From a virus (lineage: Duplodnaviria > Caudoviricetes): DNA of 64,000 nucleotides. How positions within the stretch are numbered: position 1 is the first letter of the stretch; the number at the start of each line of letters is the position of its first letter. The position numbers were made by a program, and so were the translations under genes. The DNA is taken from positions 20,442-84,441 of IMG/VR virus record IMGVR_UViG_3300030744_000156. One strand, given 5' to 3'. The notes beneath the pieces were generated by a model. The model was not told where the DNA came from. It searched no databases and saw only the letters and a program-made list of their open reading frames with translations. Shown in pieces: positions 20,025-64,000 of the stretch.

Positions 20025-20025
20025 C

Positions 20026-47352: not shown

Positions 47353-47528
47353 CCCGGCTGCCCGAGGAGGTCGAGTACTCGCTGTGGCTGCTCGCCCAGT
47401 GCCAGCGGTTCTCGAAGCTTCCCGAGGAGATCGAGGAGTCCAGCGGGGTGCTGATGAAGCACCTCGAACACGAAACGTTGGTCGCCCAAGCGGTGGCACG
47501 GCACAGGAAGCGGGGTGAGCCCCAGTGA
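46921..47528 (+). CDS. Tail assembly chaperone, -1 frameshifted long form (slip site CCCTTTG at 47253-47259)
   Basis: C CCT TTG is an in-frame X XXY YYZ; the -1 frame is open to 47528 and overlaps the TMP start. Confidence 0.75.
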
Positions 47529-49642
47529 ACAAGGTCGAACTCGTTGTCACGGGCCAAGACCGTTCCAAGGGTGCCGTGTCTGGTCCGAAGAAGGAACTCT
47601 CCGAGGTCGAAAAGGCGGCCACCAAAGCCACCGCTGCGGCGAAGACTCTGAACGAGGAACTGGCCGACGGTCTCGACAAGCGCGGCGGAATGAGCAATGC
47701 GGAGAAGGCGCTCACGAGGCTGAGTAAGGCGGCTGATGCCGCTTTCGACGACGTCAAGACCAAGATGGAGGAGGCGTTCGAGGGGGCCGGGAAGGGCGAC
47801 GCCGAACATAAGATCAAGATCAGGGCTGAGCTGGACAAGGAAGCTCTCAAGGGCAGCGTGGGCGACGCTCTCGGCGGCGTCGACTTTTTCGGCGGCAAGG
47901 ACGCCGTTCGCGGCGGCCTAGGAGGGAAGCTTCTCGAAGGGCTGCTCAAAGGCCCCGAGATCGTCAAGGCCGGAGCGAAGGGTGCTGTCGACTTCGTCGG
48001 CGGCCTCAGTGGTGGCCTGAAGAACCAGCATCCCGCTGTGCAAGCCGCCGTGTACGGGACGCTGGCGGTTGCGATCGCGGCGGCAGCTCCTCTTGCCGGC
48101 GGTGCGCTTGCGGGCGGCCTCGTCGCAAGCTTCGGTGCAGGCATCGGTGTGCTGGGCATCATCGCCGCAGCGCAGTCCACGAAAGTCCAAGAGTCGTACT
48201 CCCTGATGTGGACCCAGGTCGTCGCTCAAACCAGGCAGGCAGCGACGCCACTGGAGCAGACGCTCACCGACTTCGCGGGCCGCTCCATGACCACGTTCTC
48301 GAAGATGCGGCACAGCCTCGCCGAGGCATTCGTGGACCTCGCCCCCGGCCTGGATCGACTGGGTGACGGCCTGCTCAAGACCATCCAGCGGTTCGAACCA
48401 GCCCTGCGTCCGCTGGCAACCGCCACCACCGCGGTGTTCACCGATCTCGGGGACCGTCTGCCGGACATCATCGGCGGCATCGCGGACGCCATGAGCGACC
48501 TTTCGAGCGAGATCTCCGAAAGCCCTGAAGCTCTCGGTGACCTGCTTGCCGCTGGCGGCCAGGTGATCGAGTGGGGCATCGAGTTCATCGGGGTCCTGAA
48601 CTCCATCTGGAACCAGTACAAGGCCGCATTCGACGTCATCTCGACGCCGCTGGAGTGGATCGGTCTCAAAGATGGCGCTGACGCGGCCAGTGACACCTCG
48701 ACCGCGCTTGAGGAAGTAGCGTCCGCGTCCTACAACGCCCAGAGCCCAGCGCAAACTCTCGACCAGATCTTCGACGACATGGCCGAGTCCGCCGGCGACG
48801 TCGCGTCGCGGGGCAGCGACATCGTGAAGATCCTCGACGTGCTCGCTGGCCGTGCCCCTGGTTTCGAGGAGGCCGTGCAGGGCTTCAACGACGTCATGCG
48901 GGACATCTCTGAAACGTTCGGCAAGACCGGTGCCGCCGCTGACGGCTGGGGCAAGGCGCTGATCAACGCGGACGGAACCGTGAACACCGCAACCGAGAAC
49001 GGTTCGAAGCTGCAGGACATGATGGGGGACCTGCAGAGCGAGTTCAGCAACCTCGCTGCCAGCACCCGTGACCTTGAAGCATCGGGCATGAGCCACGACG
49101 CCGCGGTCAAGCAGGTCACCGAGTCGATGGCGAGGCAGCGGGACCAGCTCATCGAGAACGCGTGGCGCATGGGGTTGACCAAGGACCAGATGCGGGCGCT
49201 GCTCGACACCTACGGCCTCAACCCCAAGAACCTGCTCACCGTTGCGACGCTCGATGATGCTGGCGCGCGGGGCCGCCTCGCGGACCTTTTGACGCCGCGG
49301 ACGTTGTGGATCGAGCCGCGGCTGACGTCGACTGGTTTGGGTGCTGGCGTACCGAAGCTCAGTGGACCGGCCAAGGCGCATGCGGTCGGTGGTCCGGACG
49401 GTGGCGGCTGGATGACGGTCGGCGAGATGGGCCCCGAGCGGGTGAAGCTCCCGCCTGGCGCGCAGGTGTATCCGGCTACCCGTTCGCAGCCGTTGCTGCA
49501 GCAGCAAGGCGGTTCGTCGGGCGGCACCGGGGTGTTTCAGGTGAACCTGATGCTCGACGGAACGGTGCTCGCCAGGCTGATCGTCGATCCCATGAAGGGG
49601 GTTGTCCGCAACCGCGGCGGCGATCCGGGGGTGTTCGGCTGA
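47525..49642 (+). CDS. Tape measure protein (705 aa)
   Basis: A/G-rich helical; C-terminal HAVGG...VGEMGPE. Confidence 0.9.
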   Translation: MNKVELVVTGQDRSKGAVSGPKKELSEVEKAATKATAAAKTLNEELADGLDKRGGMSNAEKALTRLSKAADAAFDDVKTKMEEAFEGAGKGDAEHKIKIRAELDKEALKGSVGDALGGVDFFGGKDAVRGGLGGKLLEGLLKGPEIVKAGAKGAVDFVGGLSGGLKNQHPAVQAAVYGTLAVAIAAAAPLAGGALAGGLVASFGAGIGVLGIIAAAQSTKVQESYSLMWTQVVAQTRQAATPLEQTLTDFAGRSMTTFSKMRHSLAEAFVDLAPGLDRLGDGLLKTIQRFEPALRPLATATTAVFTDLGDRLPDIIGGIADAMSDLSSEISESPEALGDLLAAGGQVIEWGIEFIGVLNSIWNQYKAAFDVISTPLEWIGLKDGADAASDTSTALEEVASASYNAQSPAQTLDQIFDDMAESAGDVASRGSDIVKILDVLAGRAPGFEEAVQGFNDVMRDISETFGKTGAAADGWGKALINADGTVNTATENGSKLQDMMGDLQSEFSNLAASTRDLEASGMSHDAAVKQVTESMARQRDQLIENAWRMGLTKDQMRALLDTYGLNPKNLLTVATLDDAGARGRLADLLTPRTLWIEPRLTSTGLGAGVPKLSGPAKAHAVGGPDGGGWMTVGEMGPERVKLPPGAQVYPATRSQPLLQQQGGSSGGTGVFQVNLMLDGTVLARLIVDPMKGVVRNRGGDPGVFG

Positions 49643-52530
49643 TGGCCCACGTCAACGACATCGTCACACGCTTGTACCTCGACGGGGTCTGGCGTGATGT
49701 GTCCACGCATGTCCGCGCCGAGGACGGCATCAGCTACCAGCGGGGTCGGCAGGGCGAGGACAACACCACTCCGCCGCAGGAGTGCTCGCTGGTGCTCGAC
49801 AACAGTGCGAGCAAGGGCGACGGGGACTACACCGAACGGAACCCGCTCGGCCAGTGGTATGGGCACCTCAAAAGGTTCACGCCGGCAGAGGTCGCGATCC
49901 GCACCGTGAAGGACACGTGTACCGCGACCGCGTCCAGCAGCTGGGGTACCACCGATACGCACGCCGACGGGGCGTGGGATGTGCTGACGTGGACCAACAC
50001 CGGCGGGTCCGCGGGCGACTTCAACAAGGCCGCCGGTAAGGCCACTCACCTCATCGGCGCCGCCAACTCCAACCGCTTCTCCCATCTCGCCAACCTGTCC
50101 CAGCGCGACGTGAACTTCGCGGTCACGTTCTCGCTGTCGTTCAGCAACGTGACAGGAGGCGTGGTCGGCACGGACTACCTGATGCGCGGGCAAAGCCTGG
50201 GCTCGTACTACGCGGCAAGGGTGCTGATTCAGACAGACGAATCCGTCGAGATCAACATCGTGGACGCGGCCGGCACCAGCCTCATCGGCGGCCCCGAGGT
50301 CGTCGCCGGGTTGACGCATTCCTCGTCGCAGCCCCTGCGGATGCGCATGCAGTGCGAAGGCCAGACGGTGCGGGCGAAGATCTGGAACGCCAACAGCGAC
50401 GAACCGTTCGACTGGGACGTCTCCTTCACCGACGAAGGTGACAACGCCACCACCCTGGCCCTGCGTGACGCCGCCGGGTTCGTCGGTATCCGGTCGATCG
50501 TCGGCGCCGGCAACACGAACGTTCCGGTGACCCTGTCCTACGACGACATCGAGGTCTCCTCGATGATTACCACCGGCGAGGTTGCTTCGTGGCCACAGAA
50601 CCGGGACGAAACCGGCAACGACCAGACCGTGCGGATCACCATCGGCGGCCCGAAGCGCCGGCTCACCGCCGCCAAGACGCTGGCCCGTTCCGCGCTGTAC
50701 CAGTTCTTCCTCGTCAACGCGCTCGGCGGTTTCAAACCGACACCGCACGCCTACTTCCCGCTGGAAGATGACACCCAGACCGCGACCGACTTCATCGCGG
50801 AAGCAACCGGTGGACTGTCGCGCCTGAAGTTCGTGCCGTCCAGCGTCAGTTCCACCGTCAGCAAAGTGACCTGGGGCGGCGACACCACCCGCCCCGGCGC
50901 GAGAAAAGCAGCGACACTCACCGGCGGCGGGCATCTCATCGCGACACTGAGCCCTCCCACAGGCGAGTCGACGTGGGGTGCGACCTGGCAGGCGAAGTTC
51001 AACTACTCGGACGGGGCGCACGCAGTCCTGGGCACCCTGCCGACACCGGACGCCCCGATCTACCTCACGCTCGACATCGCCGCCGACACCACCACGCTCG
51101 AGTTCCGGTTGGACGGCGGCGGTGCGACGGTGCCATCGATGCTGGTCCACGACTTCGGCACCAAAGAAGAAGTCGAGGAGTGGCACACCATCCAGGTTGA
51201 TGCCAGCCAGAACGGTGCCGACGTCGACTTCTTCCTCACCGTTGACGGCGAGGTAACCGACTCCCACACGCAGGCGGGTTTCACGCTGCGAGGCCTGTAC
51301 ACCGTGCAGCTCAGCTCGACCGTCAACGCCAGCGGCGCCACAGGCTTCTCCCACCTCGCCGTGTACGGCTCCGACATCACCACGCTCGATTCGTTCGGGG
51401 TGGACCTCGCCGGGCGTGGCAATCCTGGCGAGAACCCTGTGTACCGGGCGAAGCGGGTTGCTCAGGAGTACGGCTTCGAGTTCGACTGGATCGGATACGG
51501 CGGGGTCACCGGCGTCCCCGACGTGTTAGGGCCAGGCGAAGGCGACGGCCGCACGATGGGAGCGCAACGCGTCGTCAACGTGATCGACCTCCTCAACGAT
51601 GCGGAGCAGGTCGACGGCGGTCTGCTGTACGAGCAGCGTTCCGTTGCGGGCTTCGAGTTCCGGACGCTGCGTTCCATGTTCTCCCGGTCGAGTTGGCTGA
51701 CCCTCGACATGGGCACCAGCAAGCATCTCTCCCCGCCGCTCGTGCCGACATCGGACGACCGCAACATCACCAACCGGTACACGGCTCGCCGCGCAGACGG
51801 CGGCGAGTACGTGTACACGCTTGAGGCTGGCCCGATGTCGACGCTGTCCCCCGACGAGGGCGGCATCGGCCTGATGGACAGCGGCGACTCGTTCAACCTG
51901 GAAAGCGAAACGTCGCTGCCGGACACAGCCTCCTACCAGGTTGCACGCGGCACGATCGACCAGGAGCGGTACCCGGCGGTCACCGTCGAGCTTCACCGGC
52001 CCGCTGTCTACAACACTGCCGGGCTGGTCGCGAAGGTCAGGGACCTCAACGTCGGTGACCAGGTCACGTTGGCCGGTATGGCGTCGAACGGCATCTACGA
52101 CGACCGCGACGTGCTGGTTCTTGGCTACACCGGCCAGTTGGACCGGTTCCGGCACACGCTCAAGCTCGTCACGACCCCAGCCGAGCTGCTGCGGGTGTGG
52201 ACACCAGGCAGTACGACGTCGTCGGCGTCGGAGTTCGCGCGCGGGGACTCGGACTACACGACGATCGACGAGGACCTCACCCTCACCGAAACGGACGTGA
52301 CGATCGAGGTCGAGTCGAATCGGGCGTTCTGGGTGAACAGCACCAGCCATCCCAACAACTTTCCGTTCGACGTGATGTGCGGCGGCGAACGAATGACCGT
52401 CACCGCCGGCACCGCGCCGTCTGGGCAGAACCAGACGTGGACCGTCACGCGGTCCGTGAACGGCGTGGAGAAAACACACACAGCGGGAGCGAAGATCACG
52501 CTCGCCGAACCGAACTACATGGGACTGTGA
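49642..52530 (+). CDS. Large minor tail / tail-tip protein (962 aa)
   Basis: WRDVS..VR...ISYQRGR Dit-like start; LamG-like YFPLED; follows TMP. Confidence 0.8.
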   Translation: MAHVNDIVTRLYLDGVWRDVSTHVRAEDGISYQRGRQGEDNTTPPQECSLVLDNSASKGDGDYTERNPLGQWYGHLKRFTPAEVAIRTVKDTCTATASSSWGTTDTHADGAWDVLTWTNTGGSAGDFNKAAGKATHLIGAANSNRFSHLANLSQRDVNFAVTFSLSFSNVTGGVVGTDYLMRGQSLGSYYAARVLIQTDESVEINIVDAAGTSLIGGPEVVAGLTHSSSQPLRMRMQCEGQTVRAKIWNANSDEPFDWDVSFTDEGDNATTLALRDAAGFVGIRSIVGAGNTNVPVTLSYDDIEVSSMITTGEVASWPQNRDETGNDQTVRITIGGPKRRLTAAKTLARSALYQFFLVNALGGFKPTPHAYFPLEDDTQTATDFIAEATGGLSRLKFVPSSVSSTVSKVTWGGDTTRPGARKAATLTGGGHLIATLSPPTGESTWGATWQAKFNYSDGAHAVLGTLPTPDAPIYLTLDIAADTTTLEFRLDGGGATVPSMLVHDFGTKEEVEEWHTIQVDASQNGADVDFFLTVDGEVTDSHTQAGFTLRGLYTVQLSSTVNASGATGFSHLAVYGSDITTLDSFGVDLAGRGNPGENPVYRAKRVAQEYGFEFDWIGYGGVTGVPDVLGPGEGDGRTMGAQRVVNVIDLLNDAEQVDGGLLYEQRSVAGFEFRTLRSMFSRSSWLTLDMGTSKHLSPPLVPTSDDRNITNRYTARRADGGEYVYTLEAGPMSTLSPDEGGIGLMDSGDSFNLESETSLPDTASYQVARGTIDQERYPAVTVELHRPAVYNTAGLVAKVRDLNVGDQVTLAGMASNGIYDDRDVLVLGYTGQLDRFRHTLKLVTTPAELLRVWTPGSTTSSASEFARGDSDYTTIDEDLTLTETDVTIEVESNRAFWVNSTSHPNNFPFDVMCGGERMTVTAGTAPSGQNQTWTVTRSVNGVEKTHTAGAKITLAEPNYMGL

Positions 52531-52980: not shown

Positions 52981-53847
52981 ATGGCGCCTTTCAGCAGCAG
53001 TCGTCCTGGACGCCCGTGGTTCGTGACCGTGCACACCGGTGAGGGAATCCTCGACGCCGACGACATGGCGGCGTTCCTTGACGGCAATCCCAACGCCAGT
53101 GCGCATGCGGCGTCGGACGCGGAAGAGGTGCGGGCGCCGCTGGTGCCGTATCTCCGCGCGGCATGGACCGCCGGCGCCACGGCGAACGACTGGGGCCTGC
53201 ACATCGAGGTGTGCGCCTTCGTCGCGTTGTCGCGCGAGCAGTGGCTGTCCGAAGAGGACGTCGACGTCTGGGTCCCGTACCTGAACAAGGGCGCCGGGGC
53301 GTGGCGGCGAATCCGTTCGCCGCGGTCGATGCTGCGGAACACCGCCGCGTGGGTGCGTGCGAGGTGCGACGAGTTCGGCATCACCAAACGCAAGATCACC
53401 GCAACCGATCTGCGCAACGACGTGGACGGCATCTGCGGACACGCCGACACCAGTGCGGCGTGGAGAGAAACCGACCACACCGACCCCGGCAAAAACTGGC
53501 CGTGGGATGTGTTCATCGCGATGGTCAACGACCAGGACGTTCAGCCAGAGGAGGACTTCCCAATGATGATCATGGGCCAGGACGGCAAGTACTACGACGC
53601 CCCACAGGTCTTCTTCTGGATGGACCAGAACCTCCACACCCTGATCGCCAAGGTCGACGCGCTCACCGACGCAATCTCCGACGACGAAGCCAACGTCATC
53701 GCCGCGGTGCGCGCGCAGAACAGCGGCGGCCAGGACGGCGGCCCCGTCGACGTTGTCGCCCTCGCGAACGCCCTCACGGAGCGCCTGTCTCCCGAGATGC
53801 GCAAGGCACTGGCCGACGTCCTCAAGCGCGGCACCGACGCAGCCTGA
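52981..53847 (+). CDS. Endolysin, N-acetylmuramoyl-L-alanine amidase (type 2)
   Basis: VHTGEG, ASAH, GLHIE, ICGH, HTDPG..WPW. Confidence 0.88.
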   Translation: MAPFSSSRPGRPWFVTVHTGEGILDADDMAAFLDGNPNASAHAASDAEEVRAPLVPYLRAAWTAGATANDWGLHIEVCAFVALSREQWLSEEDVDVWVPYLNKGAGAWRRIRSPRSMLRNTAAWVRARCDEFGITKRKITATDLRNDVDGICGHADTSAAWRETDHTDPGKNWPWDVFIAMVNDQDVQPEEDFPMMIMGQDGKYYDAPQVFFWMDQNLHTLIAKVDALTDAISDDEANVIAAVRAQNSGGQDGGPVDVVALANALTERLSPEMRKALADVLKRGTDAA

Positions 53848-53898: not shown

Positions 53899-54141
53899 GT
53901 GGGTGACCTCACGCAACTGCTCGGCGCGATCACTGGCCTCGTTACCGCCCTCACCGGTCTCGCCGGCCTGGCGTACGGCATCGTCCGCACGCTCCGCAAA
54001 GAACCACGCCAGGCAGCCAAATCCGGGGCTCAGCTGTACGCGGACGAGATCGCAGCCGCCGCTGAAGACGGCGAGATCACGCCCGAGGAGTTCGCGGCAG
54101 CGCAGCGCCATCTCGAACAGCAGAAAGGAGACCGGCCGTGA
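53899..54141 (+). CDS. Single-TM holin-like protein
   Basis: N-terminal TM then charged tail; follows endolysin. Confidence 0.55.
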   Translation: MGDLTQLLGAITGLVTALTGLAGLAYGIVRTLRKEPRQAAKSGAQLYADEIAAAAEDGEITPEEFAAAQRHLEQQKGDRP

Positions 54142-54764
54142 CGACCGACCAGGTGAAGACCGTCATCGACGAGGCAGTCGACGAGTCCCGTGACGGGTTC
54201 GGTCGCCGCGTCATCGTCGCGAGCATCCTCGTCGTGTTCGCGGGCGTCGTGGTGCTGGCGTACACGATGCTGCGCGGTTTCGAGCGGATCGACTCCCTGC
54301 AAGGACAAGCCGACGACCACGCACGCACCGCCCAGATGCTCGCCGAGCAAGTCACGCGGCTCGGCGGCACACCGGTGGTGCAGCCGCCGACCGTCGCCGG
54401 CCCGACCGGACCCGCCGGGCCGGCTGGCAGAGATGGCACGAACGGACGCGACGGGCAGAACGGCACCACGCCACCGTGCGTGAGCGAACCGCCGCAATGC
54501 CGCGGTGCTGACGGCGAACCCGGAACGAACGGGCAGGACGGCCAGGACGGCGCCGACGGCCAGGACGGGAAAGACGGTAAGGACGGGGTCGACGGGAAGC
54601 CCCCTGGCGGCTGGACGTGGGTTGACGGCGATGGCCGCACGCAGAACTGCACCCGCGTCAACGGGAGCCCCGACACCGATCCCAGGTACGCGTGCACGGC
54701 CCCGTCCAGCGGCCCACCCGGCACGACCACCACCACGTTTCCACCTCTGCTCGGAGGGCCGTGA
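54138..54764 (+). CDS. Membrane-anchored collagen-like protein of the lysis cassette
   Basis: TM, short coiled coil, G-X-Y repeats. Confidence 0.8.
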   Translation: MTTDQVKTVIDEAVDESRDGFGRRVIVASILVVFAGVVVLAYTMLRGFERIDSLQGQADDHARTAQMLAEQVTRLGGTPVVQPPTVAGPTGPAGPAGRDGTNGRDGQNGTTPPCVSEPPQCRGADGEPGTNGQDGQDGADGQDGKDGKDGVDGKPPGGWTWVDGDGRTQNCTRVNGSPDTDPRYACTAPSSGPPGTTTTTFPPLLGGP

Positions 54765-54768
54765 ATCC

Positions 54769-55521
54769 ATGAGACGCATCCTCATCGCAGCTGTCGTACT
54801 GCTGCTCGCGTGCGCCCCCGCCGTGGCATCCAACGTCGGGGAATCGCAGGCACGGCAGGCCCCGCGACTGTGCACGGATTTCGCTGCCGGACAGTTGACG
54901 GTCGAGATCCTCGGCAACTCGATCGCCGCCGGCTACGGCGTGGTCGAGTCGAAGAGGTGGGCCAACCAGTTCGCCCGCCAACTGCCAGGGCCGAACAGCG
55001 CGGTGTGGCAGGGCGCCGTGTCCGGCTCCTTGGTCGGCGACTATCTGCCAGGCGGCCCGTACCAGTTCCATGTGGAGTTCACGAAGACCGCGAAACCCAC
55101 CCTGGTGATCCTCAACTGGCGGGTGAACGACCAGTGGATGAGCATCGAGCACGCGTCCGAGGGCTACACGCCGGCCACGTTCAAGGCCCGCTACCGGCAG
55201 ATCCTCACCGAGATCCACGCGGCCTCACCCACCACCACGTTCATGATCGCCGTGTCGCCGTGGATCCTCGACACCCGCATCGACGCCGGCACCTACTCCC
55301 AGTGGGACTACATCAACGTCTTGTGGGAGCTGAAGGTCGAGTTCGGTGCGATCTGGATGGACTGGATGCGGTTCATGCCGCACGCAGGCGACAGCAACAG
55401 CGCAGGCCTGCTGCTGTACGACCTCGGCCACCCCAGCGAGTCAGGTCAGTCCGTGCTGGCCGCACACACCTACGAGCGCATCGCCTCGTACTGCCTCGGA
55501 TTGGAAGGAAGCACACCATGA
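54769..55521 (+). CDS. Secreted SGNH/GDSL hydrolase
   Basis: Signal peptide; LGNSIA, GAVSG, RVND, DLGHP blocks. Confidence 0.82.
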   Translation: MRRILIAAVVLLLACAPAVASNVGESQARQAPRLCTDFAAGQLTVEILGNSIAAGYGVVESKRWANQFARQLPGPNSAVWQGAVSGSLVGDYLPGGPYQFHVEFTKTAKPTLVILNWRVNDQWMSIEHASEGYTPATFKARYRQILTEIHAASPTTTFMIAVSPWILDTRIDAGTYSQWDYINVLWELKVEFGAIWMDWMRFMPHAGDSNSAGLLLYDLGHPSESGQSVLAAHTYERIASYCLGLEGSTP

Positions 55522-55877
55522 TCCGTCTCGTGTTCGGCCGCGAACCCGCCTACTGGCTGGCCCTCGCCAGCGGCCTCATCGCCTTCGTCTCGGCCTCGGT
55601 CACCTCGTTGTCGACCGATCAGCAGGGCGTCCTCAACGCCGCGGTCGCCGCCGTGTTCGGTGTCATCACCGCAGGGTTCCTCGCTGGCGAGAAGTCCGTG
55701 GCCGCCATCGTCGGTCTCTTCAAGGCGTTGATCGCGGTCGGTCTGGCGTTCGGCCTGGCCTTGTCGCCCGAGGTGCAGTCCAGTGCGATGGTCGTCGTCG
55801 AGCTGGTCCTGACTGGTGTGCTGGTGAGGCCGAACGTTGCCGCCCCGGTGAAGTCGAACTACGACCTCGCCAGGTAG
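55518..55877 (+). CDS. Holin, actinophage FGREPA type
   Basis: VFGREPAYWLAL; multiple TM; VRPNVAAP. Confidence 0.8.
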   Translation: MIRLVFGREPAYWLALASGLIAFVSASVTSLSTDQQGVLNAAVAAVFGVITAGFLAGEKSVAAIVGLFKALIAVGLAFGLALSPEVQSSAMVVVELVLTGVLVRPNVAAPVKSNYDLAR

Positions 55878-55937
55878 ACCAGTCGCCCGCCGATAGCGGC
55901 GGCGGGTCGCGTTGCCCCCTCCCCTCGGGCGGCGCGA

Positions 55938-55989
55938 ACGGACGGCCTCAACTCCCCGCAGTGGGCGCGGGTGGAGTGGGGCCGTTCGT
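55938..55989. terminator. Long hairpin between convergent genes
   Basis: ACGGACGGCCT / GGGCCGTTCGT outer stem. Confidence 0.55.
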
Positions 55990-55990
55990 G

Positions 55991-56365
55991 CTACCCGCTG
56001 CACACCCGGTAGTAGAGCGCCCAGGCGTGGATACCGTCCGGGGTTTTCGTCTCACGCGAAAGCATGGGTTCACCCGACAGGCCGATCAGGTCGGCCATCT
56101 CCCACAAGCGCCGGCCGTCCTTGCACTGCGTGACCTTGCCCAGCCGTACCGCTCCGTTGCTGTCCACGCAGCCCTTGTCGATGAGGGTGTCCGTGACCCG
56201 AGCCCCGTCTTGAGCGACCTGCTCGCACCGATCAGCACCGGCCGCCGACGTGGATGTAGGCGTTGACGTCGGTGTCGCAGGCTTCGACACGTCGGCCGCT
56301 GGCTGGGTGCTGCTTGAGCAGGCGGCGGCGAGCAGGGCGGTGAGGATCAAAGCTGTGGGGCGCAC
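55991..56365 (-). CDS. Lipoprotein
   Basis: Lipobox LLAAAC; S/T/P linker; four further Cys. Confidence 0.75.
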   Translation of the reverse strand: MRPTALILTALLAAACSSSTQPAADVSKPATPTSTPTSTSAAGADRCEQVAQDGARVTDTLIDKGCVDSNGAVRLGKVTQCKDGRRLWEMADLIGLSGEPMLSRETKTPDGIHAWALYYRVCSG

Positions 56366-56441
56366 GGGCTGTCTCCGCTCAGTCGGGTGGGCTATCCGGT
56401 CCTGTCGCGGGTGCGTGAGCACGTGTTACGCCCCGAACCGG

Positions 56442-57275
56442 CTACTTGCCTGGCGGCTTCGGTATCTCCACTGCCGGCTTCGGCGGCCACGCGGCGGAAG
56501 CATCCCGCTCCAGCACCGCCACAACCTCGAACCGTGCGCCGTCCATGCGCGTGTCGTTGACTTCTACCGGCCGCCCGTCCGGCAGTGACGCGGTGCGCAG
56601 GATCCGCACCAACGGCCCGCCATGCACCACACCATCCAGCACAGCGACCTCCTCGTCGCTCGCCGCCACCGCGCCCTGGACGTCTTCCCACAACAAGGGC
56701 TGATCGAAGTGCTCCTCGATCCGGTCGTAGATCCCGCCGAAGCCCGTGTCCGTCGCGCCCACGACGGGCAGTTCTGCGAGCAGCCACGCCGGCAGATACG
56801 ACACCGCCCATTGCAGGCCCTGCGGTTCCGGCTCGACCTCGCCGAGGACACGTGACCGCTTCACGACCTGCGACCCCGGTTCGATATTCAGGCGCCGGGC
56901 GATCTCGGCGGACACGGGCACAACCCTCACGGTTGGCGTGGCCACCAGTCGGTAGCCCTGTGCGGCTTCGTCGAAGTAGTAGCCGATGCGATCGCGGAAC
57001 ACGTACCGCCGACGAGCGATCCGCTGCACGTCCGGCAACTGGCGCACGTAGAAGCCTTTGCGCTGGACGCCGACGACGAGGCCTTCGAGTTTCAGCTGGT
57101 CGAACGCGTTCTGGACGGTTTGGGTCGACGTCTTGAACCGGCTGACGAGGTCGCTGGTGCTGGGCAGGCGTTGGCCGGGCTTGTAGTCGCCGCGCTGGAT
57201 CTCCTCGCGGAGGACCTTGGCGATCTTCTGCGCGGTCGTTTTGCCTGCTGGCGCGGGGTGTTCGTCGGCAGCCAT
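56442..57275 (-). CDS. GntR/HutC-family repressor with UTRA domain (KorSA/TraR-like)
   Basis: YKPGQRLPS...TVQNAFDQLKLEGLV...RKGFYV; UTRA C-terminus. Confidence 0.92.
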   Translation of the reverse strand: MAADEHPAPAGKTTAQKIAKVLREEIQRGDYKPGQRLPSTSDLVSRFKTSTQTVQNAFDQLKLEGLVVGVQRKGFYVRQLPDVQRIARRRYVFRDRIGYYFDEAAQGYRLVATPTVRVVPVSAEIARRLNIEPGSQVVKRSRVLGEVEPEPQGLQWAVSYLPAWLLAELPVVGATDTGFGGIYDRIEEHFDQPLLWEDVQGAVAASDEEVAVLDGVVHGGPLVRILRTASLPDGRPVEVNDTRMDGARFEVVAVLERDASAAWPPKPAVEIPKPPGK

Positions 57276-57328
57276 AGCCGGGAGCGTACGCGCCTGCCCT
57301 AGACAAGCTTGCGCATACAGCTACTCTG

Positions 57329-57356
57329 CTTACCTAGAGCATCTACTCTAGGTAAG
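57329..57356. promoter_or_regulatory. Probable GntR operator in divergent promoter
   Basis: CTTACCTAGAG-N6-CTCTAGGTAAG perfect inverted repeat in an AT-rich gap. Confidence 0.7.
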
Positions 57357-57399
57357 AGTTACCAGTGTGAACAGTGCAACCACAGCGAAAGGAGGCGAG

Positions 57400-57603
57400 G
57401 TGGACAAGCCCGTTCGAATGCTCCTCGTCGAAGAGGTCGCGGACCTTCTCCGGGTCAGCCCAACCACGGTTTATCGGGCCATCCGCGAGGGCGACCTTGG
57501 CGCCGTCCGTGTTGGGCGGGGCTCGGGCGCGATCCGCATTCCGGAAACCGCCTACGACGCCTACCTGACTCGCTGCGCACTGGCCGCCGCCCAGCCCGCC
57601 TGA
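57400..57603 (+). CDS. Excisionase-like HTH protein
   Basis: LLVEEVADLLRVSPTTVYRAIREGDLGAVRVG; RBS AGGAGG. Confidence 0.85.
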   Translation: MDKPVRMLLVEEVADLLRVSPTTVYRAIREGDLGAVRVGRGSGAIRIPETAYDAYLTRCALAAAQPA

Positions 57604-57623
57604 CCACGAGAGGACACCCCACG

Positions 57624-57815
57624 ATGCACAGCCTGCTGACCGGCAAGTTCGAACCCTTGAGCGTCGGCCCGGACCCGATGGTCGAAGGTCCGTGGCCCGC
57701 AGGCCGCACGCCCATGCCCGTCAAGACCGCGCCCGCAACGACCGCCCCGTCTACGAGCCGGGTGCGGATCAACACCGAGCCCAGGACCGTGCCGCGCGAC
57801 GGCGACACGATCTGA
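57624..57815 (+). CDS. Small P/T-rich hypothetical protein
   Basis: RBS GAGGA. Confidence 0.5.
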   Translation: MHSLLTGKFEPLSVGPDPMVEGPWPAGRTPMPVKTAPATTAPSTSRVRINTEPRTVPRDGDTI

Positions 57816-57853
57816 CCTGCAGCACACCGCCACTGAACCCGAGAGGGACTCTG

Positions 57854-58669
57854 TTGAACGCCACTGCCAGCACGCAGGAACGCTGGGTCAACCCGACCAT
57901 CTACACCGGCGTAGGAATCGTCGCGGTGTACTGCGTCGGCGTGTCCGGCTACTGGCTGGTCAAGCTTGCCGGGTTCTGCTCGATGCACAACGTGCTCGGG
58001 TTCAGCGTGCCAGTCTCCCTCGATGTCGCAGGCGGAATCGCCGCGCTCGTGTGGGTCAAGGGATCTACCAAAGAGGCGCGGATGTGGGGCGCCGCCATCG
58101 CCGTGGGCACCCTATTGGGCTCGCTTGGCGGAAACATCCTGGCGCACCTCATCGAGGCAGGCATCGTCAAGGTCACGCCGTGGCTGATCATCGGCGTCGG
58201 CTCAATCCCGCCGATCATGTTGTTCCTCGCGATCCATCTGCTGATCGTGTCCAGCAACCGGCCAGCGCCGGTCGCCCGCCGCGTCAGGCAGCCGATGGCG
58301 ATCGCCTCCGAACCCCCTCGCAGCGCGCGGACCCCCGCCGCGCCCCGCGAGGCCACCGCGCCAGCCGCCCCAACCTCCCCCGCGGCTGGCGCATCCGCGC
58401 CGGACCCCACCCCCTCATCCCAGGGGTCCGGCGCGGACCCTGCCGAGAACACCAACGTCCGCCCCATCAGCACCGGACTCAGCCAGCGCGAGCAGGTCTG
58501 GATCTGGTTCAAGACCCAGGTCGACGCCGCCGACGGCGACGTCACCAAGGTCACCGGCCCGGACCTCGTCGCCGAGTTCGGGGCCGAGCACCTGCGCAAG
58601 AAGATCAGCGACCTTCGCCGCCGCTACCTCGACGTGTGCACCGCCACCAGCAAGGCCGTCAACGACTGA
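57854..58669 (+). CDS. DUF2637/SpdA-like membrane protein with C-terminal wHTH
   Basis: Four TMs, VPVSLD, NILAH, IPPIMLFLAIH; Pro/Ala linker. Confidence 0.78.
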   Translation: MNATASTQERWVNPTIYTGVGIVAVYCVGVSGYWLVKLAGFCSMHNVLGFSVPVSLDVAGGIAALVWVKGSTKEARMWGAAIAVGTLLGSLGGNILAHLIEAGIVKVTPWLIIGVGSIPPIMLFLAIHLLIVSSNRPAPVARRVRQPMAIASEPPRSARTPAAPREATAPAAPTSPAAGASAPDPTPSSQGSGADPAENTNVRPISTGLSQREQVWIWFKTQVDAADGDVTKVTGPDLVAEFGAEHLRKKISDLRRRYLDVCTATSKAVND

Positions 58670-58713
58670 ACGCCCGCCAAGGGCAGAAAGACCAAGGAGA
58701 GGGGGAACGCGCT

Positions 58714-59196
58714 GTGAACACCGCTCTGGTCGGTTCCAGCCTCGTCGGCATCGTCGCACTCGTGTGGGGCGCGGTCCGACTGTGGAAGAAAAAGCCGCTC
58801 AAGCTCACCACCTGGCTGTGGGTGATCGCCGGATTCACCCTGGCAGGCAGCCTAGTCACCAACTTCCGTGAGCTCATCACCACCGCCGCCGGCGTGGCTG
58901 GCGGGCCGATCGGCGTGGGCGCGAAGGTCGTGGTGGGCCTGGCTGGCCTGGTCATGCTGTGGCTGGTCTGGCACGAAGCGCCATTGCGCAAGGGCAAGGG
59001 CGGACGCCGGGCCGCGATCGGCGACGGCAGCAGCGGCTCCAGCCGGGGCGGCGCGAAAACCTACACGCCGTTCCTTGGACTGCTGGCGCCGATCCTGCTG
59101 CTCGCCGCCGGCGGGCTACTGGGCGACTGGTCCCGCGGCATCGCGAACATGCTCGGACGGCTCGCCGGTCCGCTCAGCACGTTCTTCGGGGCCTGA
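58714..59196 (+). CDS. Multi-pass membrane protein (Spd-like)
   Basis: Four hydrophobic segments; RBS AAGGAGAGG. Confidence 0.7.
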   Translation: MNTALVGSSLVGIVALVWGAVRLWKKKPLKLTTWLWVIAGFTLAGSLVTNFRELITTAAGVAGGPIGVGAKVVVGLAGLVMLWLVWHEAPLRKGKGGRRAAIGDGSSGSSRGGAKTYTPFLGLLAPILLLAAGGLLGDWSRGIANMLGRLAGPLSTFFGA

Positions 59197-59197
59197 C

Positions 59198-59767
59198 ATG
59201 GACCTGATTCTGTTCGTGCTGCTGCTCGCCTGGTTTCTGACCGGGCGTCTGCTCGGCGACCTGCAGACCCTGGCGCGTCGCGGCATGGCGTGGGTGGCGG
59301 ACAAGGTCGCCGACATGGCCGACCGCCGCACCGACCGCTCACCTTGGCTGGCCAAGCACGTCGCGCGGATGGCGCGCTCCGGAGCAGCACGGCTGCGCGA
59401 CCGACGCCCGCCGATGCAGCCACTTACCAGCGACGGCCAAAACGCCGGGCAGAACGCGTTCGACGGTGCCGGCCAGGTCGCCGTTGCTGGCGTGGTGCTG
59501 GTGCTGGTGTGGGTGCGTATCGCCGTCGCCGACGCGCTGGGCGCCGCCCAAGCCGCCGCCCAGCCCCGAGCCAGCACCACCTCCGGGCGGTGGTCGTGGG
59601 CTGCGGGCTGGACCACGTGGGCCCGCTGGCCTCGCGACGGCGAACCCCATGCCCCCGTGCGGGCCACCGCGACCCGCGCCGACCGCCCTGAACCCCTAGC
59701 ACTTCCCCCGGCCACTTCCTGCGGGGGCAGTACCACCGAATTCACCACTCACTGGAGGACTACATGA
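59198..59767 (+). CDS. Membrane protein of the transfer module
   Basis: N-terminal TM and a second TM. Confidence 0.6.
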   Translation: MDLILFVLLLAWFLTGRLLGDLQTLARRGMAWVADKVADMADRRTDRSPWLAKHVARMARSGAARLRDRRPPMQPLTSDGQNAGQNAFDGAGQVAVAGVVLVLVWVRIAVADALGAAQAAAQPRASTTSGRWSWAAGWTTWARWPRDGEPHAPVRATATRADRPEPLALPPATSCGGSTTEFTTHWRTT

Positions 59768-60090
59768 CCGACCCGCAGCCCGTGTCCGACACCACCACGA
59801 CCGTCAACGTCGGCGAGGGCGGCCTGGGCGCCTACATCATCTTCGCCGACAACATGGCCAACACCTGCCAGCAGGGCTTCGACGTGTGCGAGTACACCCT
59901 CGCCGACATGCAGGCCCACGGCTGGGGCGGCGAGAAGACCGCGGGCTTGGAACGCGCACAGGAGTCCTTGGCCAACGCCCGCATGCACTTCCGCCAGATG
60001 GAAAGCGACCTCAGTGCCGCCCTGTCGATCACCGAGCAGTACGCGGCCAACCCCGGCGCGGGCGACCGCGAGTCCGTCACCAACGTCTGA
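59764..60090 (+). CDS. Small helical protein of the transfer module
   Basis: RBS GGAGGA; helical hairpin pattern. Confidence 0.65.
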   Translation: MTDPQPVSDTTTTVNVGEGGLGAYIIFADNMANTCQQGFDVCEYTLADMQAHGWGGEKTAGLERAQESLANARMHFRQMESDLSAALSITEQYAANPGAGDRESVTNV

Positions 60091-60113
60091 CCACGCACCG
60101 CAGGAGGGTCGCC

Positions 60114-62288
60114 GTGACCACCGAGCTCGAGCCCCGCATCGCCCCGCCGCCGCTGGCCGTGGTCGAGCACCAGTTGCGCCAGCAGTACCGCGCGATGTTG
60201 CTGCCGCCACTGGCCTCCACCGGCACGGTGCTCGGCGGCGGCTGGATGCACGACCGGATCATGGCGACCCTCGCCGTCGGAGGCCCGGAGATGCTGCTCG
60301 TCGGCGTTGGCGGCGGCGTCCTCATCGCCGTCGCCTCCGCTGGCATCGCCACCCTGTACGCCGCCCGCGCCGGGGCGTTGGACGGCCTGCCCCCGGCCCG
60401 CAAACTGTTCGGCGGAGCAGCCGGGGCAGGCCTGGCTCTGACGCTGTTCGGTGACGTCACACTGCTCGTGGCCGGCGTCTACAGCGTTGGCGTGCTCGGT
60501 GTGACCCGCTGGTACCGGGCACGCTGGGCTATGCGTTCCTCCCTGCTGCAGCGGCGCGATGAGCTCGCCGCCATCGCACCGGCAGCCGAGGTGGAGTCAC
60601 AGCCGGGGCCCGGCGACGACTCGTCGATCATGGACGCGGAGCTCGTCGAACCGGACGAGGCCGACGTCTTCGTGACCCGCTGGACCCAGGGCGCGGTCAA
60701 GCATCTTCCCGACACCCGCCTCATCGCCCTGCCCGGTCCGCGGCTGGCCTACATCGTGCAGGCCGGGCCAAACGGCGTGACCCTCGAAGCCGCCAACACC
60801 GCACGAGAGAAGATCGCCGGAGCCCTGCGCCTAACCCTGCCCGGGCCCCGAACCGGCGGGCAGGACATCGTGTTCGACCAGCCCACCGACGGCACCCTCA
60901 CCGACCGCTCACAGCTGCGCGCCCAGATCGTCGACCTCGCCGCCGCGGCCGCCGCAGGCCGTCGCGTCACCGGGCAACCCGAGCACGCACCAGGCAACCC
61001 ATGCTCGTTCCGCATCGGCGGCTACATCGACGACGGCCACGCCTACTACTACGACCTCGCTGACTGCGACGGCGCCTGGTCCGGTGTTCTGCTCGGCGGC
61101 ACCGGCATGGGCAAGTCCAGCGTCGGCGACCACATTGCCTACAACGCCATGCGCGTGAGCTTCGACGTCGCCTACCTCGACCCGCAGCGCGGCGCGTCCT
61201 CACCAGTACTGGCCGCGCACGCCCAGTACCCCGCACTCGGGCCCGAGCACGCCGAGGCGTTCCTGCTGTTCCTCGAGGAATGCGCGGACACCCGCGAGAC
61301 GTGGATGGCGATGCACTCCGGTGTCGGCACCATCACCTGGAACATGACCGCCCCGTGCGCGCCGGACGGCACCCACCCAGACCCGAAGTGCCCGTGCGGC
61401 GGCGTCGTCCCACCCGGCATCCTCGCCTTGATCGAGGAATGCGACCAGGTGTTCAACGCGGTGCACGCTGGCACCAACACCAAGCTCGCCGAGCGCTACG
61501 GCCAGCTCGCCAAGCGCATCCGCAAGCTCAACATGGCCCTGCTCGCCATGACCCAGATGCCCGAGCTCAAGACCTTCGGCGGCTCGGAGTTGCTGCGTTC
61601 CAACCTGCCCGTGCGCAACCTGCTCGCGATGCACATCTCCAGCAACGTCTCCGGCACCCTCATCCCAGGCCTGCCCTACAGCCCGAAGCTGCTGCCCAAG
61701 ACCTCCGGCCGCGGACTGGCCTGCGGACGCGACACCCGGACCATGCAGGTCGCGCTGGACTACACGCCCCGCCGAGAGAAGGCTGCCGAGGGAGTGTCTG
61801 GTCCGTACGCCGAGGACCTGTTCGAAGTGCTGCCGCAGCGTCGCCGCTACGAACTCGACGTGGTCGCGTGGCGGCGCCACTTCCCACAGGGCGCCGTCGA
61901 CGCCGTCACCGCCAACCGGGAAGCCGCCCGCGCCCGATTCGTGGCGAAGAAGAACGGCACCGCACCGCCACCGGTCGCCGCGCCTGTCACGTCTCCAGCG
62001 ACAGGAACCCTGACCTGGCCCAAGCCGGTCGTGCTCGTCGGGCGCGGCCCCACCGGCAAGCTCGCCGCACTCGCTCACGCCGTGGACGGCCTGCCCGCCG
62101 ATGAGTGGATCACCGCAGGCGACCTGGCCCGCCGCACTGGCCGCGTGCCCGCCGACGCCGAAGACGGCGAACGTCGCGCCATCGCCCGCCAGGTCGCCGC
62201 CGAACTGACCGCCGCCGGCTTGGTGCTCCGCAAGCGCGAAGCTGGCATGTCGGTCACCGTCCACCAGCTCCGCAGAGCGTGCGCATGA
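60114..62288 (+). CDS. TraB-type FtsK/SpoIIIE conjugal DNA translocase
   Basis: N-terminal TMs; GGTGMGKSS Walker A; LIEECDQ Walker B; RKLNMALLAMTQ; C-terminal wHTH. Confidence 0.88.
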   Translation: MTTELEPRIAPPPLAVVEHQLRQQYRAMLLPPLASTGTVLGGGWMHDRIMATLAVGGPEMLLVGVGGGVLIAVASAGIATLYAARAGALDGLPPARKLFGGAAGAGLALTLFGDVTLLVAGVYSVGVLGVTRWYRARWAMRSSLLQRRDELAAIAPAAEVESQPGPGDDSSIMDAELVEPDEADVFVTRWTQGAVKHLPDTRLIALPGPRLAYIVQAGPNGVTLEAANTAREKIAGALRLTLPGPRTGGQDIVFDQPTDGTLTDRSQLRAQIVDLAAAAAAGRRVTGQPEHAPGNPCSFRIGGYIDDGHAYYYDLADCDGAWSGVLLGGTGMGKSSVGDHIAYNAMRVSFDVAYLDPQRGASSPVLAAHAQYPALGPEHAEAFLLFLEECADTRETWMAMHSGVGTITWNMTAPCAPDGTHPDPKCPCGGVVPPGILALIEECDQVFNAVHAGTNTKLAERYGQLAKRIRKLNMALLAMTQMPELKTFGGSELLRSNLPVRNLLAMHISSNVSGTLIPGLPYSPKLLPKTSGRGLACGRDTRTMQVALDYTPRREKAAEGVSGPYAEDLFEVLPQRRRYELDVVAWRRHFPQGAVDAVTANREAARARFVAKKNGTAPPPVAAPVTSPATGTLTWPKPVVLVGRGPTGKLAALAHAVDGLPADEWITAGDLARRTGRVPADAEDGERRAIARQVAAELTAAGLVLRKREAGMSVTVHQLRRACA

Positions 62289-62351
62289 CCCACGGCATCG
62301 CTACGCAGCGTCGCTCCAAGCCTCTCCTGAACACCGGGAGGGGCTTCGCGC

Positions 62352-62552
62352 TGTTGCAGGTTGTTGCAGCCGCTGTTGCAGGCACCTGCAACAGCCTGCA
62401 ACAGCGCCTGCAACAGCGAACCACACTTGACCTGCGGAAACGCGAATCCTGCTTCAGGCTGCAACATCTACGCGCCGACACCCCGCACCACCCGTTTCCG
62501 CAGGTCAAGCAGCAACCGACACGAACAGCCGGACGCGGCCCCGCTGTTGCAG
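62352..62552. repeat. clt-like locus: eight CTGCAACA 8-mers in both orientations plus a 16-bp inverted repeat
   Basis: TGTTGCAG at 62352, 62362, 62374, 62545; CTGCAACA at 62386, 62396, 62408, 62459; TTGACCTGCGGAAACG 62427 / CGTTTCCGCAGGTCAA 62493. Confidence 0.7.
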
Positions 62553-62594
62553 CCCACGCACACCAAGTCGTCACTCACAGTAAGGAACTGACCG

Positions 62595-63068
62595 GTGTAC
62601 TCGGACCCGAACGCCCTGTTCTACGTCGTGGCCGGCGTGGCCGTGTTCGTCTGGTGGTACCGCAACCGCGACCAAGCCCCCGTCCACGACGGCACCGAGG
62701 CCACGGTCGACGGCCTGCGGGAGATCGACTTCGTTCGCGCCGCGTGCGACGACCCCCAGCACCACCCTGACCGCATCCCCACCTCCCCACTGCGTGCCCG
62801 CCACATCGACCTCGACGTCCGCGACATGCACCTCAACGGCTGGGGATCCACCGGCCACCTGCTGCTGTGCACGATCCACAACCGCGGCCGGTACCCACTC
62901 GACGTCGTGCACGTCCGCTGCGGCCGCGGCTGCGGTACCCACGCCGAGCTCGACGCTGACGACGCCAGGGTGGGGATCGGCGGGCTGCGCAACGACGGCT
63001 GGTGCAACGACGGGGACCTCCCCATCTGTCCCTACTGCGCCGGTACCCGATCCCGTACCTGGCGCTGA
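62595..63068 (+). CDS. Membrane-anchored Cys/His-rich protein
   Basis: N-terminal TM; CGRGC, CPYC. Confidence 0.6.
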   Translation: MYSDPNALFYVVAGVAVFVWWYRNRDQAPVHDGTEATVDGLREIDFVRAACDDPQHHPDRIPTSPLRARHIDLDVRDMHLNGWGSTGHLLLCTIHNRGRYPLDVVHVRCGRGCGTHAELDADDARVGIGGLRNDGWCNDGDLPICPYCAGTRSRTWR

Positions 63069-63632
63069 TCCCCACCGCCAGGTCCCCACGGCCCCGTACC
63101 CACCGATCCCCCAGGAGTGATCCCCATGATGGGTCGCACCCACGCGCTCACCGGCCTCTGCGCCGGCCTCGCCCTCGCACCCCTGCTCGTGGGGACCCTT
63201 GCTCAGACGCTGGTCATCGCCATCGTCACCGCCGGGTACGCGCTGCTGCCTGACCTCGACCACCCTGGCGCCCGCGCCTCCCGTCTGCTCGGACCGCTCA
63301 CCGGCCTGCTGTCCCGCGCCGTCCGCGCAGGGTCGAGCTGGCTGTACCTACGCACCAAAGGTCCCCGCGACGAACGCCACCGTGGGGAACATCGGCACGC
63401 CACCCACACGCTCGCGTTCGCGCTGCTCGCGGGTACCGCGACCACCTTGGGTACCTGGAGAGGTGGAGCGTGGGTACCCGTGGGGATCGTCGCCCTGGGG
63501 ATCGTGCTTGCCGCCGACGCCCTTGGGGACTGGGTACTGCCGATCGTGGGGATCAGCATCGCCGCCTGGTGGGGATCGATCCCTGGGGACCCGCTGGCCG
63601 AGCTCGCAGGGATCGGCCCCGCTCTGGGGATC
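62841..63632. repeat. Second 8-bp repeat family TGGGGATC embedded in coding sequence
   Basis: Direct copies at 62841, 62971, 63481, 63496, 63547, 63570, 63625; inverted at 63067, 63119. Confidence 0.65.
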
Positions 63633-63872
63633 GCGGTCGCCGCCGGTTGCCTCACCCACTGCCTCGGTGACGCGCTCACTCTGTCCGGCTGCCCGTTCCT
63701 GTGGCCGCTGCCGATCGCTGGGGAGACCTGGTACGAGATCCGCCCGCCCCGACCGCTGCGATTCCGCACGGGGGGCGCGGTCGAGACCCGACTCGTGTTC
63801 CCCGCGTTCGTTGTCGCCGGCGTGCTGCTGCTGCCCGGCGCGACCGGGTTCCTGTCCAGCATCGTCACCTGA
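63126..63872 (+). CDS. Membrane-bound metal-dependent hydrolase (YdjM/DUF457-like)
   Basis: MGRTHA, LLPDLDHP, HRHATHT, THCLGDALT..GCPFLWP. Confidence 0.85.
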   Translation: MMGRTHALTGLCAGLALAPLLVGTLAQTLVIAIVTAGYALLPDLDHPGARASRLLGPLTGLLSRAVRAGSSWLYLRTKGPRDERHRGEHRHATHTLAFALLAGTATTLGTWRGGAWVPVGIVALGIVLAADALGDWVLPIVGISIAAWWGSIPGDPLAELAGIGPALGIAVAAGCLTHCLGDALTLSGCPFLWPLPIAGETWYEIRPPRPLRFRTGGAVETRLVFPAFVVAGVLLLPGATGFLSSIVT

Positions 63873-63942
63873 GCGTTGCCTGCGGTGAGAGGCAACGGGC
63901 AACACCTCTCCGCGCTCGCCCTCCGCGACGACGCTGAACCAC

Positions 63943-64000
63943 ATGACGTTCACCGCTCACCGGCCCGACGTCCTCGTCCTCACCCGCGGTTTCCTCCACC
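63943..64000 (+). CDS. Partial CDS running off the right edge
   Basis: ATG then 19 open codons. Confidence 0.3.
   Translation, partial: MTFTAHRPDVLVLTRGFLH

Follow-up and report, generated by a model that had tools for sequence, protein, structure and literature searches.

We analyzed a 64,000-nucleotide stretch of viral DNA (the window), which comprises bases 20442-84441, the last 64 kb, of the single-contig IMG/VR virus record IMGVR_UViG_3300030744_000156 (84,441 bp). The best explanation of its content is that a phage genome contains, as a phage module, a complete apparatus for DNA transfer and spread of the kind found in Streptomyces. The element is a temperate siphophage of the integrating kind, and the record represents it either as a closed circle or in circularly permuted form; its host is a mycelial actinomycete, probably of the Pseudonocardiaceae. 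The module spans 56442-63872, to the right of the virion and lysis operon, and combines a GntR-type repressor, an excisionase-family protein, small membrane proteins, a TraB-like translocase and an array of 8-bp repeats. The features of this region are as follows (positions are those of the window):

55518-55877, plus strand: holin, final gene of the virion and lysis operon and left neighbor of the module (phrog_9752, E 9e-19; four predicted transmembrane segments)
55991-56365, minus strand: lipoprotein-like open reading frame (ORF) of 124 amino acids (aa) with a signal peptide and a LAAC lipobox (gene call and sequence)
56442-57275, minus strand: repressor of GntR/HutC type, with a GntR helix-turn-helix (HTH) and a UTRA domain (PF00392, E 1.5e-15; PF07702, E 3e-11)
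57276-57399: divergent control region of 124 bp with CTAG-centered palindromes (CCCTAGAC at ~57296; 11-bp inverted repeat 57329-57339 / 57346-57356)
57400-57603, plus strand: excisionase-family HTH_17 DNA-binding protein of 67 aa, which opens the rightward operon (PF12728, E 1.5e-12; TIGR01764 "excise", E 4.9e-12; phrog_66)
57854-58669, plus strand: DUF2637/SpdB2-like membrane protein of 271 aa with four to five transmembrane segments, a Pro/Ala-rich linker and a C-terminal domain (transmembrane prediction)
58714-60090, plus strand: three small genes encoding proteins of 160 aa (three transmembrane segments), 189 aa (two transmembrane segments) and 108 aa (soluble) (gene call and transmembrane prediction)
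60114-62288, plus strand: TraB-like double-stranded DNA translocase of 724 aa, with Walker A GTGMGKS, Walker B IEECD, N-terminal hydrophobic helices, an FtsK-fold motor and a C-terminal winged-helix-like domain
62352-62552: clt-like array of eight TGTTGCAG copies spaced by 10-12 bp (first three direct, next three inverted, then a further two) within a 307-bp noncoding stretch after the translocase gene
62595-63068, plus strand: Cys-rich protein of 157 aa, with a hydrophobic stretch near the N terminus that lies below the transmembrane threshold used
63126-63872, plus strand: YdjM-family membrane protein (PF04307, E 1.3e-23)

An initial annotation, made from the sequence alone, had placed the holin, GntR, HTH, membrane and P-loop genes with the right content and coordinates. 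It had a divergent unit, starting with the GntR gene, begin about 560 bp after the holin stop; the 3' end of that gene does lie 565 bp on, but the intervening stretch is not empty, as it holds the lipoprotein-like ORF. This ORF goes with the late genes in relatives of the element. It lies outside the block that is inverted in some of them, keeping the late-gene orientation in L005, where the module is inverted.

A TraB-like translocase with an FtsK fold

The conclusion that the 724-aa protein is an FtsK-type motor rests on its Walker motifs, on the fold match of its AlphaFold model and on FtsK_SpoIIIE matches in a few distant homologues. The Walker residues G333, K334, S335, E442 and D444 are invariant in 20 homologues. 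PDB sequence and profile searches with the translocase returned nothing meaningful, and only the fold comparison worked. With the AlphaFold (AF2) model (predicted local distance difference test [pLDDT], 77), Foldseek matched the FtsK motors 6t8g, 6t8b and 2ius (E 3e-10 to 2e-9; template modeling score by target, 0.57-0.67). It also matched the TcpA coupling protein 6o1x (range for FtsK and TcpA, E 3e-10 to 9e-9), and HerA and EssC stood lower among the matches. A profile search of 1.8 billion representatives recovered only 387 relatives of the translocase. Among 40 distant homologues, 4 reach the FtsK_SpoIIIE family PF01580, and many carry winged HTH domains of the MarR/IclR/DeoR type.

By sequence comparison, plasmid transfer genes are the closest relatives. 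The nearest Atlas cluster to the translocase is "plasmid transfer protein TraB" (0.97), and the only tblastn matches in plasmid records were on plasmids of Pseudonocardia, Amycolatopsis, Saccharothrix and Nocardiopsis, at 27-30% identity. On the Saccharothrix ParAB plasmid L010 (CP091383.1), a gene for a 724-aa TraB-like homologue (19041-21215) is followed by a NUDIX gene. The TraB-like gene of this plasmid is annotated as "sigma-70 family RNA polymerase sigma factor," a label that is probably due to the C-terminal winged helix. A megablast search of the module DNA against phage and plasmid records gave no match.

In the model, N-terminal helices occupy residues 30-154 of the translocase, with hydrophobic segments at 55-84 and 104-122, and the N terminus is predicted to be membrane associated. 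The last 85 residues (62031-62285; pLDDT, 87) are modeled with confidence as a domain in the order H-b-H-H-b-b-H (helix-strand-helix-helix-hairpin).

A clt-like repeat array follows the translocase gene

The 8-bp repeat array reported in the initial annotation is real and lies far above chance. The window contains 10 copies of TGTTGCAG, 8 of which fall within the array; the expectation for the full stretch is 1.7, and a count of 10 was not reached in any of 100 shuffles. Inside the array is a perfect 17-bp inverted repeat (62426-62442 / 62493-62509). Published clt sites are arrays of 8-bp repeats that are read by the cognate TraB (PMC4447253; PMC3583192), and as a sequence feature, an array next to the translocase gene, the arrangement here has the form of such a cognate site.

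Arrays were found at the same place and in the same layout in eight relatives, each with 6-10 copies of an element-specific 7-8-mer. The repeated word is CTGCAAAG in four of these, CTGCAACA in one, ATGCAAG in one and of the CATGCA type in two. At one long-helix position of alignment A2, which covers the C-terminal 85 residues of the translocases, the residue is R with CTGCAACA arrays (two elements), Q with CTGCAAAG arrays (four elements) and K in two elements (ATGCAAG; CCATGCA/CCTTGCA); it is also R in the Actinosynnema mirum element, which has CATGCA-type words. This R/Q/K position is a possible specificity determinant for the 8-mer, a hint drawn from nine sequences. Elsewhere on the circle, outside the window and ~3.1 kb past the module, a stand-alone 152-aa protein (G000:C1:3102-3560, minus strand) combines an N-terminal HTH with an FtsK gamma domain (PF09397, E 2e-16); the oriented DNA word that it recognizes might be this one or a different one.

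An ATPase of this fold and a repeat array could also serve a role other than transfer, such as segregation into spores or compartments (FtsK/SpoIIIE-like, centromere-type), superinfection exclusion or anti-phage defense. FtsK/HerA-fold ATPases, which include the lower-ranking matches HerA and EssC, do occur in segregation and defense; repeat arrays can be centromeres or iterons; and the lipoprotein-like and YdjM genes lie nearby. However, the nearest sequence-detectable relatives of the translocase are plasmid transfer genes, and the A. mirum variant of the module has KilB, NUDIX and DUF2637 genes, which are standard conjugation companions. The placement of the array after the translocase gene also corresponds to the position of clt on TraB plasmids. 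We regard a nontransfer role as quite improbable.

Regulatory and membrane genes of the module

The GntR/UTRA repressor is the counterpart of TraR/KorA/KorSA. Its gene is kept at the equivalent position in four relatives (L003, L005, L006 and L008), and CTAG palindromes of like kind are present in the corresponding intergenic region of each; these palindromes are likely to be GntR operators, as predicted from sequence. A consensus scan for promoters and terminators across 55.7-64 kb gave no useful signal in DNA of such high GC content. PMC2440964 describes the roles that KorSA and Pif have in actinomycete transfer regions. The context of the translocase gene (the GntR regulator here; NUDIX, KilB and DUF2637 genes in A. 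mirum) is typical of such regions.

The membrane proteins of the module span 57854-59767. The initial annotation had assigned them to the DUF2637/Spd type. For the 271-aa protein, the evidence is indirect: the DUF2637 protein encoded at the corresponding place in the A. mirum module resembles it over the C-terminal 62 residues (39% identity, E 9e-13), and its nearest named Atlas cluster is DUF2637 (score, 0.93; 56% viral members), but the protein does not match the PF10935/DUF2637 profile directly. The first and second of the three small genes abut and the second and third overlap, with junctions as for translational coupling. Their order is kept in L003, L005, L008 and L009, and their ratios of nonsynonymous to synonymous substitution rates (dN/dS) are 0.23-0.34. 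These three genes are Spd-like by position and character only. To the right of the array, the 157-aa Cys-rich protein is the most conserved product of the module (94% identity to that of the related genome G001; dN/dS, 0.15). The YdjM gene follows the translocase gene in every relative examined, and the block found inverted in some relatives ends with it on the right (boundary, ~63830-63875).

Being rich in small membrane proteins, the module might act solely in Spd-type spread, moving phage DNA that is entering or replicating from compartment to compartment of a mycelium already infected, with no transfer between individuals. SpdB2 homologues have been noted on actinophages, Thoma et al. suggest for them a role in spreading phage DNA, and TraB itself is described as taking part in intramycelial spread (PMC4447253). 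According to the same source, however, a TraB-like translocase with a cognate array suffices for intermycelial transfer in plasmids. Moreover, a GntR kil-kor switch set apart from the phage repressors suggests expression in the lysogen rather than during infection. Unlike the actinophage SpdB2 homologues, the membrane protein here comes with a translocase, an array and a regulator, that is, with the whole apparatus. On balance, restriction of the module to intramycelial spread seems rather unlikely.

Evidence that the module belongs to the phage genome

The first 99 bp of the record are identical to its last 99 bp (IMG/VR class, direct terminal repeats); hence, the assembly closes into a circle. 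Past 64000, the circle continues onto 20.4 kb of minus-strand early genes and then reaches window position 1. The initial annotation had pointed to the sequence beyond 64000 as the place where either a second integrase or closure onto the early genes would be seen: the record closes onto the early genes through the 99-bp overlap, and no second integrase is present. One tyrosine integrase only is encoded in the whole 84.3-kb record, and the attP site, first annotated as intact and located elsewhere, follows it:

14191-15774, plus strand: sole integrase of the element, of the tyrosine type and with an inserted LacI-type HTH
15790-16050: attP, with a 20-bp direct repeat (at 15791 and 16030) on either side of a 3' tRNA half (~15880-15925)

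The module is without an integrase or recombinase of its own, the single integrase of the record being 40 kb away. The full 84.3-kb record contains no serine recombinase and, by six-frame search, no ParA (AAA_31/ParA). At the junction, the initial annotation had seen no tRNA fragment, att repeat or transposase, and our searches agree: no direct or inverted repeats of at least 11 bp cross the module borders, the module region contains no tRNA, and no transposase-like family was found among the module ORFs (Pfam, NCBIfam and PHROGs). Inverted repeats of at least 11 bp were also sought at the block borders to explain the inversion in relatives, and none were found. Replication families were absent from the module ORFs, and no genes of the RepSA, RepAM or Prim-Pol type appeared among the scanned proteins, although RepSA and RepAM models were not searched specifically. 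GC content is even across the junction (0.67-0.70).

The initial annotation had raised the alternative of an actinomycete integrative and conjugative element (AICE) inserted in or next to the phage, with its integrase and replication genes beyond the window. Because the closed circle has one integrase, one attP and no module-flanking repeat of at least 11 bp, the sequence itself excludes this neighboring-AICE alternative. An arrangement in which an AICE and a phage had accreted in tandem at a single att site was likewise ruled out, given one integrase, one attP and no internal att-like repeat. The evidence thus indicates that the module belongs to the phage genome. The proposal that phage and transfer module form one element is supported, and the sequence-level signs that the initial annotation had named as speaking against it all proved absent. 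As to excision, the module HTH_17 protein was rejected as the sole excisionase candidate, as a second, threshold-level HTH_17 lies near the integrase (12368-12505). In the integrase itself, the LacI-type HTH (PF00356, E 4e-15) occupies residues 308-350 and separates the SAM-like N-domain from the catalytic C terminus; such an insertion is unusual for a tyrosine recombinase.

Homologous modules recur beside different virion genes

At least eight other elements proved to have a homologous module, with a variant 8-mer of its own in the same position. A syntenic 84,135-bp JGI contig has tail genes, lysis genes, GntR, translocase, YdjM and early genes. The GntR-to-YdjM block (~56440-63870) is inverted as a unit, with its neighbors unchanged, in a Logan contig of 91 kb and in a Lentzea chromosome. 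G001, a genome of 9.4 Mb, shares the module and some early genes with the window at 67-94% identity, but its virion genes are unrelated. G002 (60.5 kb, with direct terminal repeats, CheckV 100% and one integrase) has a homologous module in which the 8-mer is that of the window; its terminase, portal and capsid are unrelated to those of the window, and its protease is a different one. In the 65-kb provirus of A. mirum DSM 43827, located around 6.61-6.63 Mb of CP001630.1, both ends are more than 20 kb away from the module, which also has NUDIX (Pif-like), KilB and DUF2637 genes. The combination of terL with a traB-like gene, for which the initial annotation had suggested looking in other genomes, therefore recurs in the 84- and 91-kb contigs, in a second closed phage and in integrated proviruses.

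These relatives bear on whether the record, a metagenome assembly, might be a chimera of a phage and an unrelated conjugative element. The junctions from late genes to module to early genes recur in independent assemblies, including the Lentzea and A. mirum isolate genomes, and the uniform GC content across the junction also speaks against an artifact; a chimera is hardly tenable.

For six of the seven module genes, dN/dS between the window and G001 is 0.15-0.34, and by this sequence comparison the module genes are under purifying selection. This result also bears on the origin of the module. Its distribution is mosaic, with 85% identical translocases beside different virion genes in G001 and G002, it is missing from most capsid relatives, and the block is inverted as a unit in relatives, as might be expected of a remnant of an AICE or plasmid transfer region carried as cargo that benefits itself or the host and does not mobilize the phage genome. 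Yet in no context examined does the module have its own integrase, replication gene or att, and its genes are under purifying selection. Since the cis site is on the phage genome, any active translocase would act on that genome. We consider the cargo explanation very unlikely. Among the capsid relatives, the IMG/VR genome G007 (53,652 bp; capsid 68% identical to that of the window) encodes a far more distant 654-aa relative of the translocase (50718-51362, E 2e-9), and other TraB-like clades may occur in phages too.

Comparison with known transfer systems

A conjugal transfer locus is present on pZL12, a plasmid-phage of Streptomyces (Zhong et al. 2010, J Bacteriol 192:3747, PMID 20472796, as cited in PMC3583192); it is the only studied actinomycete hybrid and is regarded in PMC7157519 as a singleton. 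In PMC4487206, pZL12 and its relative pSLE1 appear as ParA/ParB plasmid-prophages. Like pZL12/phiZL12 and pSLE1, the element is a circular actinomycete element of roughly their size (~85-90 kb) with a tailed virion and a conjugal transfer locus. Unlike them, it has an integrase and a tRNA attP and lacks ParA, and its relatives are integrated in chromosomes; the ParA/ParB maintenance, plasmid RepA and lack of integration that define the pZL12/pSLE1 type do not describe it. We view pZL12 as a partial precedent for a phage with a transfer module. The idea is accordingly less novel than the initial annotation implied, as both the pZL12 transfer locus and the actinophage SpdB2 homologues precede it.

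The TraB/clt/Spd plasmids of Streptomyces (pSVH1, pIJ101 and pSG5) encode a membrane-associated FtsK-fold ATPase with a C-terminal DNA-recognition domain (PMC4447253), an architecture that is predicted here from the model. Also shared are an 8-bp repeat array by the gene, a GntR-type repressor and coupled small membrane proteins, including one that is SpdB2/DUF2637-like. In contrast to these plasmids, the translocase here has diverged so far that neither PF01580 nor any other curated model detects it, the array is built of direct and inverted triplets, and the replicon is an 84-kb phage rather than a 9-30-kb plasmid.

With the AICEs (pSAM2, SLP1 and pMEA300), the element has in common a tyrosine integrase for prophage-like insertion at a tRNA gene, a GntR regulator resembling KorSA and a Tra translocase, and its A. 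mirum relative has a Pif-like NUDIX gene. Unlike AICEs, it replicates by a phage initiator and DnaB, carries a full virion and lysis module and measures 84 kb rather than ~9-24 kb; nor does the module unite int, rep and tra in one att-flanked element. In AICE surveys for which a PF01580 match is a requirement (PMC3218068), the 724-aa translocase would go undetected. Our literature search found no paper on integrative tailed phages with a complete TraB/clt/GntR module.

Proposed function of the module

We consider it fairly probable that the module serves TraB-type transfer or spread of the excised prophage as double-stranded DNA. From its gene content, fold, cis repeat, closure, single integrase and attP, conservation and purifying selection, we infer how regulation, DNA binding and transfer would proceed. 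The rightward operon would be silenced in the lysogen through binding of the GntR/UTRA repressor to the CTAG palindromes, in a kil-kor arrangement. Relief of repression would lead to production of the excisionase-family protein, the Spd-like membrane proteins and the TraB-like translocase, and the phage integrase would excise the prophage to give circular double-stranded DNA. A translocase hexamer would then read the 8-mer array downstream of its own gene through the C-terminal winged helix and pump the unprocessed double-stranded circle into an adjacent hypha and, with the membrane proteins, across septal cross-walls. In the recipient, phage Rep and DnaB would replicate the circle, and the integrase would insert it into a tRNA gene. 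One genome would thus have two routes, virions and a contact-dependent transfer that spares the donor.

Several observations weigh against this proposal. The initial annotation had named an FtsK/SpoIIIE translocase; the Walker motifs, the fold and the FtsK_SpoIIIE matches of distant homologues uphold this, but the protein matches no Pfam, NCBIfam or PHROG family, and PF01580 gave no match at E <= 0.01 in the protein search or, when all six frames of the full record were searched, at E <= 10. Because the translocase fails every curated family model, its homology to characterized TraB is remote; in tblastn, it matched no Streptomyces plasmid (PLSDB) and no phage record. The best matches of its C-terminal domain are winged helices (MarR, IclR, ArsR-type and histone H1), all of them weak (E >= 0.18). 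The Spd assignment is indirect, and given the second, weak HTH_17 near the integrase, the excisionase-like protein of the module need not be the phage excision factor. The module is also accessory, being absent from three of four phages with 59-68% identical capsids. The genomes of the capsid relatives measure 44-54 kb versus 84 kb here, a difference that bears on packaging of the whole genome. Finally, the translocase family is rare: of 301 species genomes from the host family, at least 5 have it.

Gene transfer by phages and gene transfer by conjugative elements are usually considered separately. We offer, as a tentative generalization, that in mycelial actinomycetes a lineage-crossing module could make integrative tailed temperate phages dual-route elements, with a GntR switch separate from lytic control, such that lysogeny might spread by contact, with neither virions nor host death. 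PF01580-dependent surveys of AICEs and conjugation miss this whole translocase clade, and phage-AICE hybrids may consequently be uncounted in them. At least nine elements, among which there are several unrelated sets of virion genes, have the module, and some of them are proviruses in strains that can be cultured, which makes conjugation by tailed phages directly testable. Cultured lysogens include A. mirum DSM 43827, Lentzea sp. NPDC092896 and Saccharothrix coeruleofusca. The element-specific 8-mers, together with the small C-terminal domain, provide a natural series on DNA reading by winged helices of the TraB/FtsK type.

Phage backbone and other genes of the element

In total, 139 genes were called by codon usage. 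The virion, lysis and replication genes are arranged as follows:

30962-55521, plus strand: siphovirus late module, TerL through fiber-like proteins
30962-32365, plus strand: TerL (late module)
35639-37681, plus strand: portal (late module)
37678-38850, plus strand: ClpP-type protease (late module)
38858-40339, plus strand: HK97-type capsid (late module)
45181-45939, plus strand: major tail protein (late module)
47525-49642, plus strand: tape measure (late module)
49642-52530, plus strand: 962-aa tail protein (late module)
53023-53847, plus strand: endolysin (late module)
54138-55521, plus strand: fiber-like proteins (late module)
3543-4904, minus strand: DnaB helicase (PF03796, E 4e-77)
4901-6061, minus strand: replication initiator (phrog_270, E 9e-20)

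No tail sheath was found among the scanned proteins. TerL, portal, protease, capsid, major tail protein, tape measure, lysin, holin and integrase are all present, which makes the element a temperate HK97-fold siphovirus. The nearest isolated phage is distant, the portal being 45% identical to that of Streptomyces phage Dagobah.

The early genes also include RecT with a YqaJ exonuclease. A 643-aa C5 cytosine methylase (G000:C1:8198-10129) in the early region is common to relatives, and an RNA-repair pair on the minus strand (G000:C1:18404-20496, up to window 1-55) consists of PNKP (AAA_33 plus HAD_PNKP) adjoining a T4-type RNA ligase. A PAPS-reductase-domain protein (17369-18139) is likewise encoded in the early region. 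A TROVE/Ro60 gene (24174-25787) directly follows an ARAGORN tRNA-Ser(GCT) call (24001-24074), which resembles a Y-RNA or tRNA-like partner.

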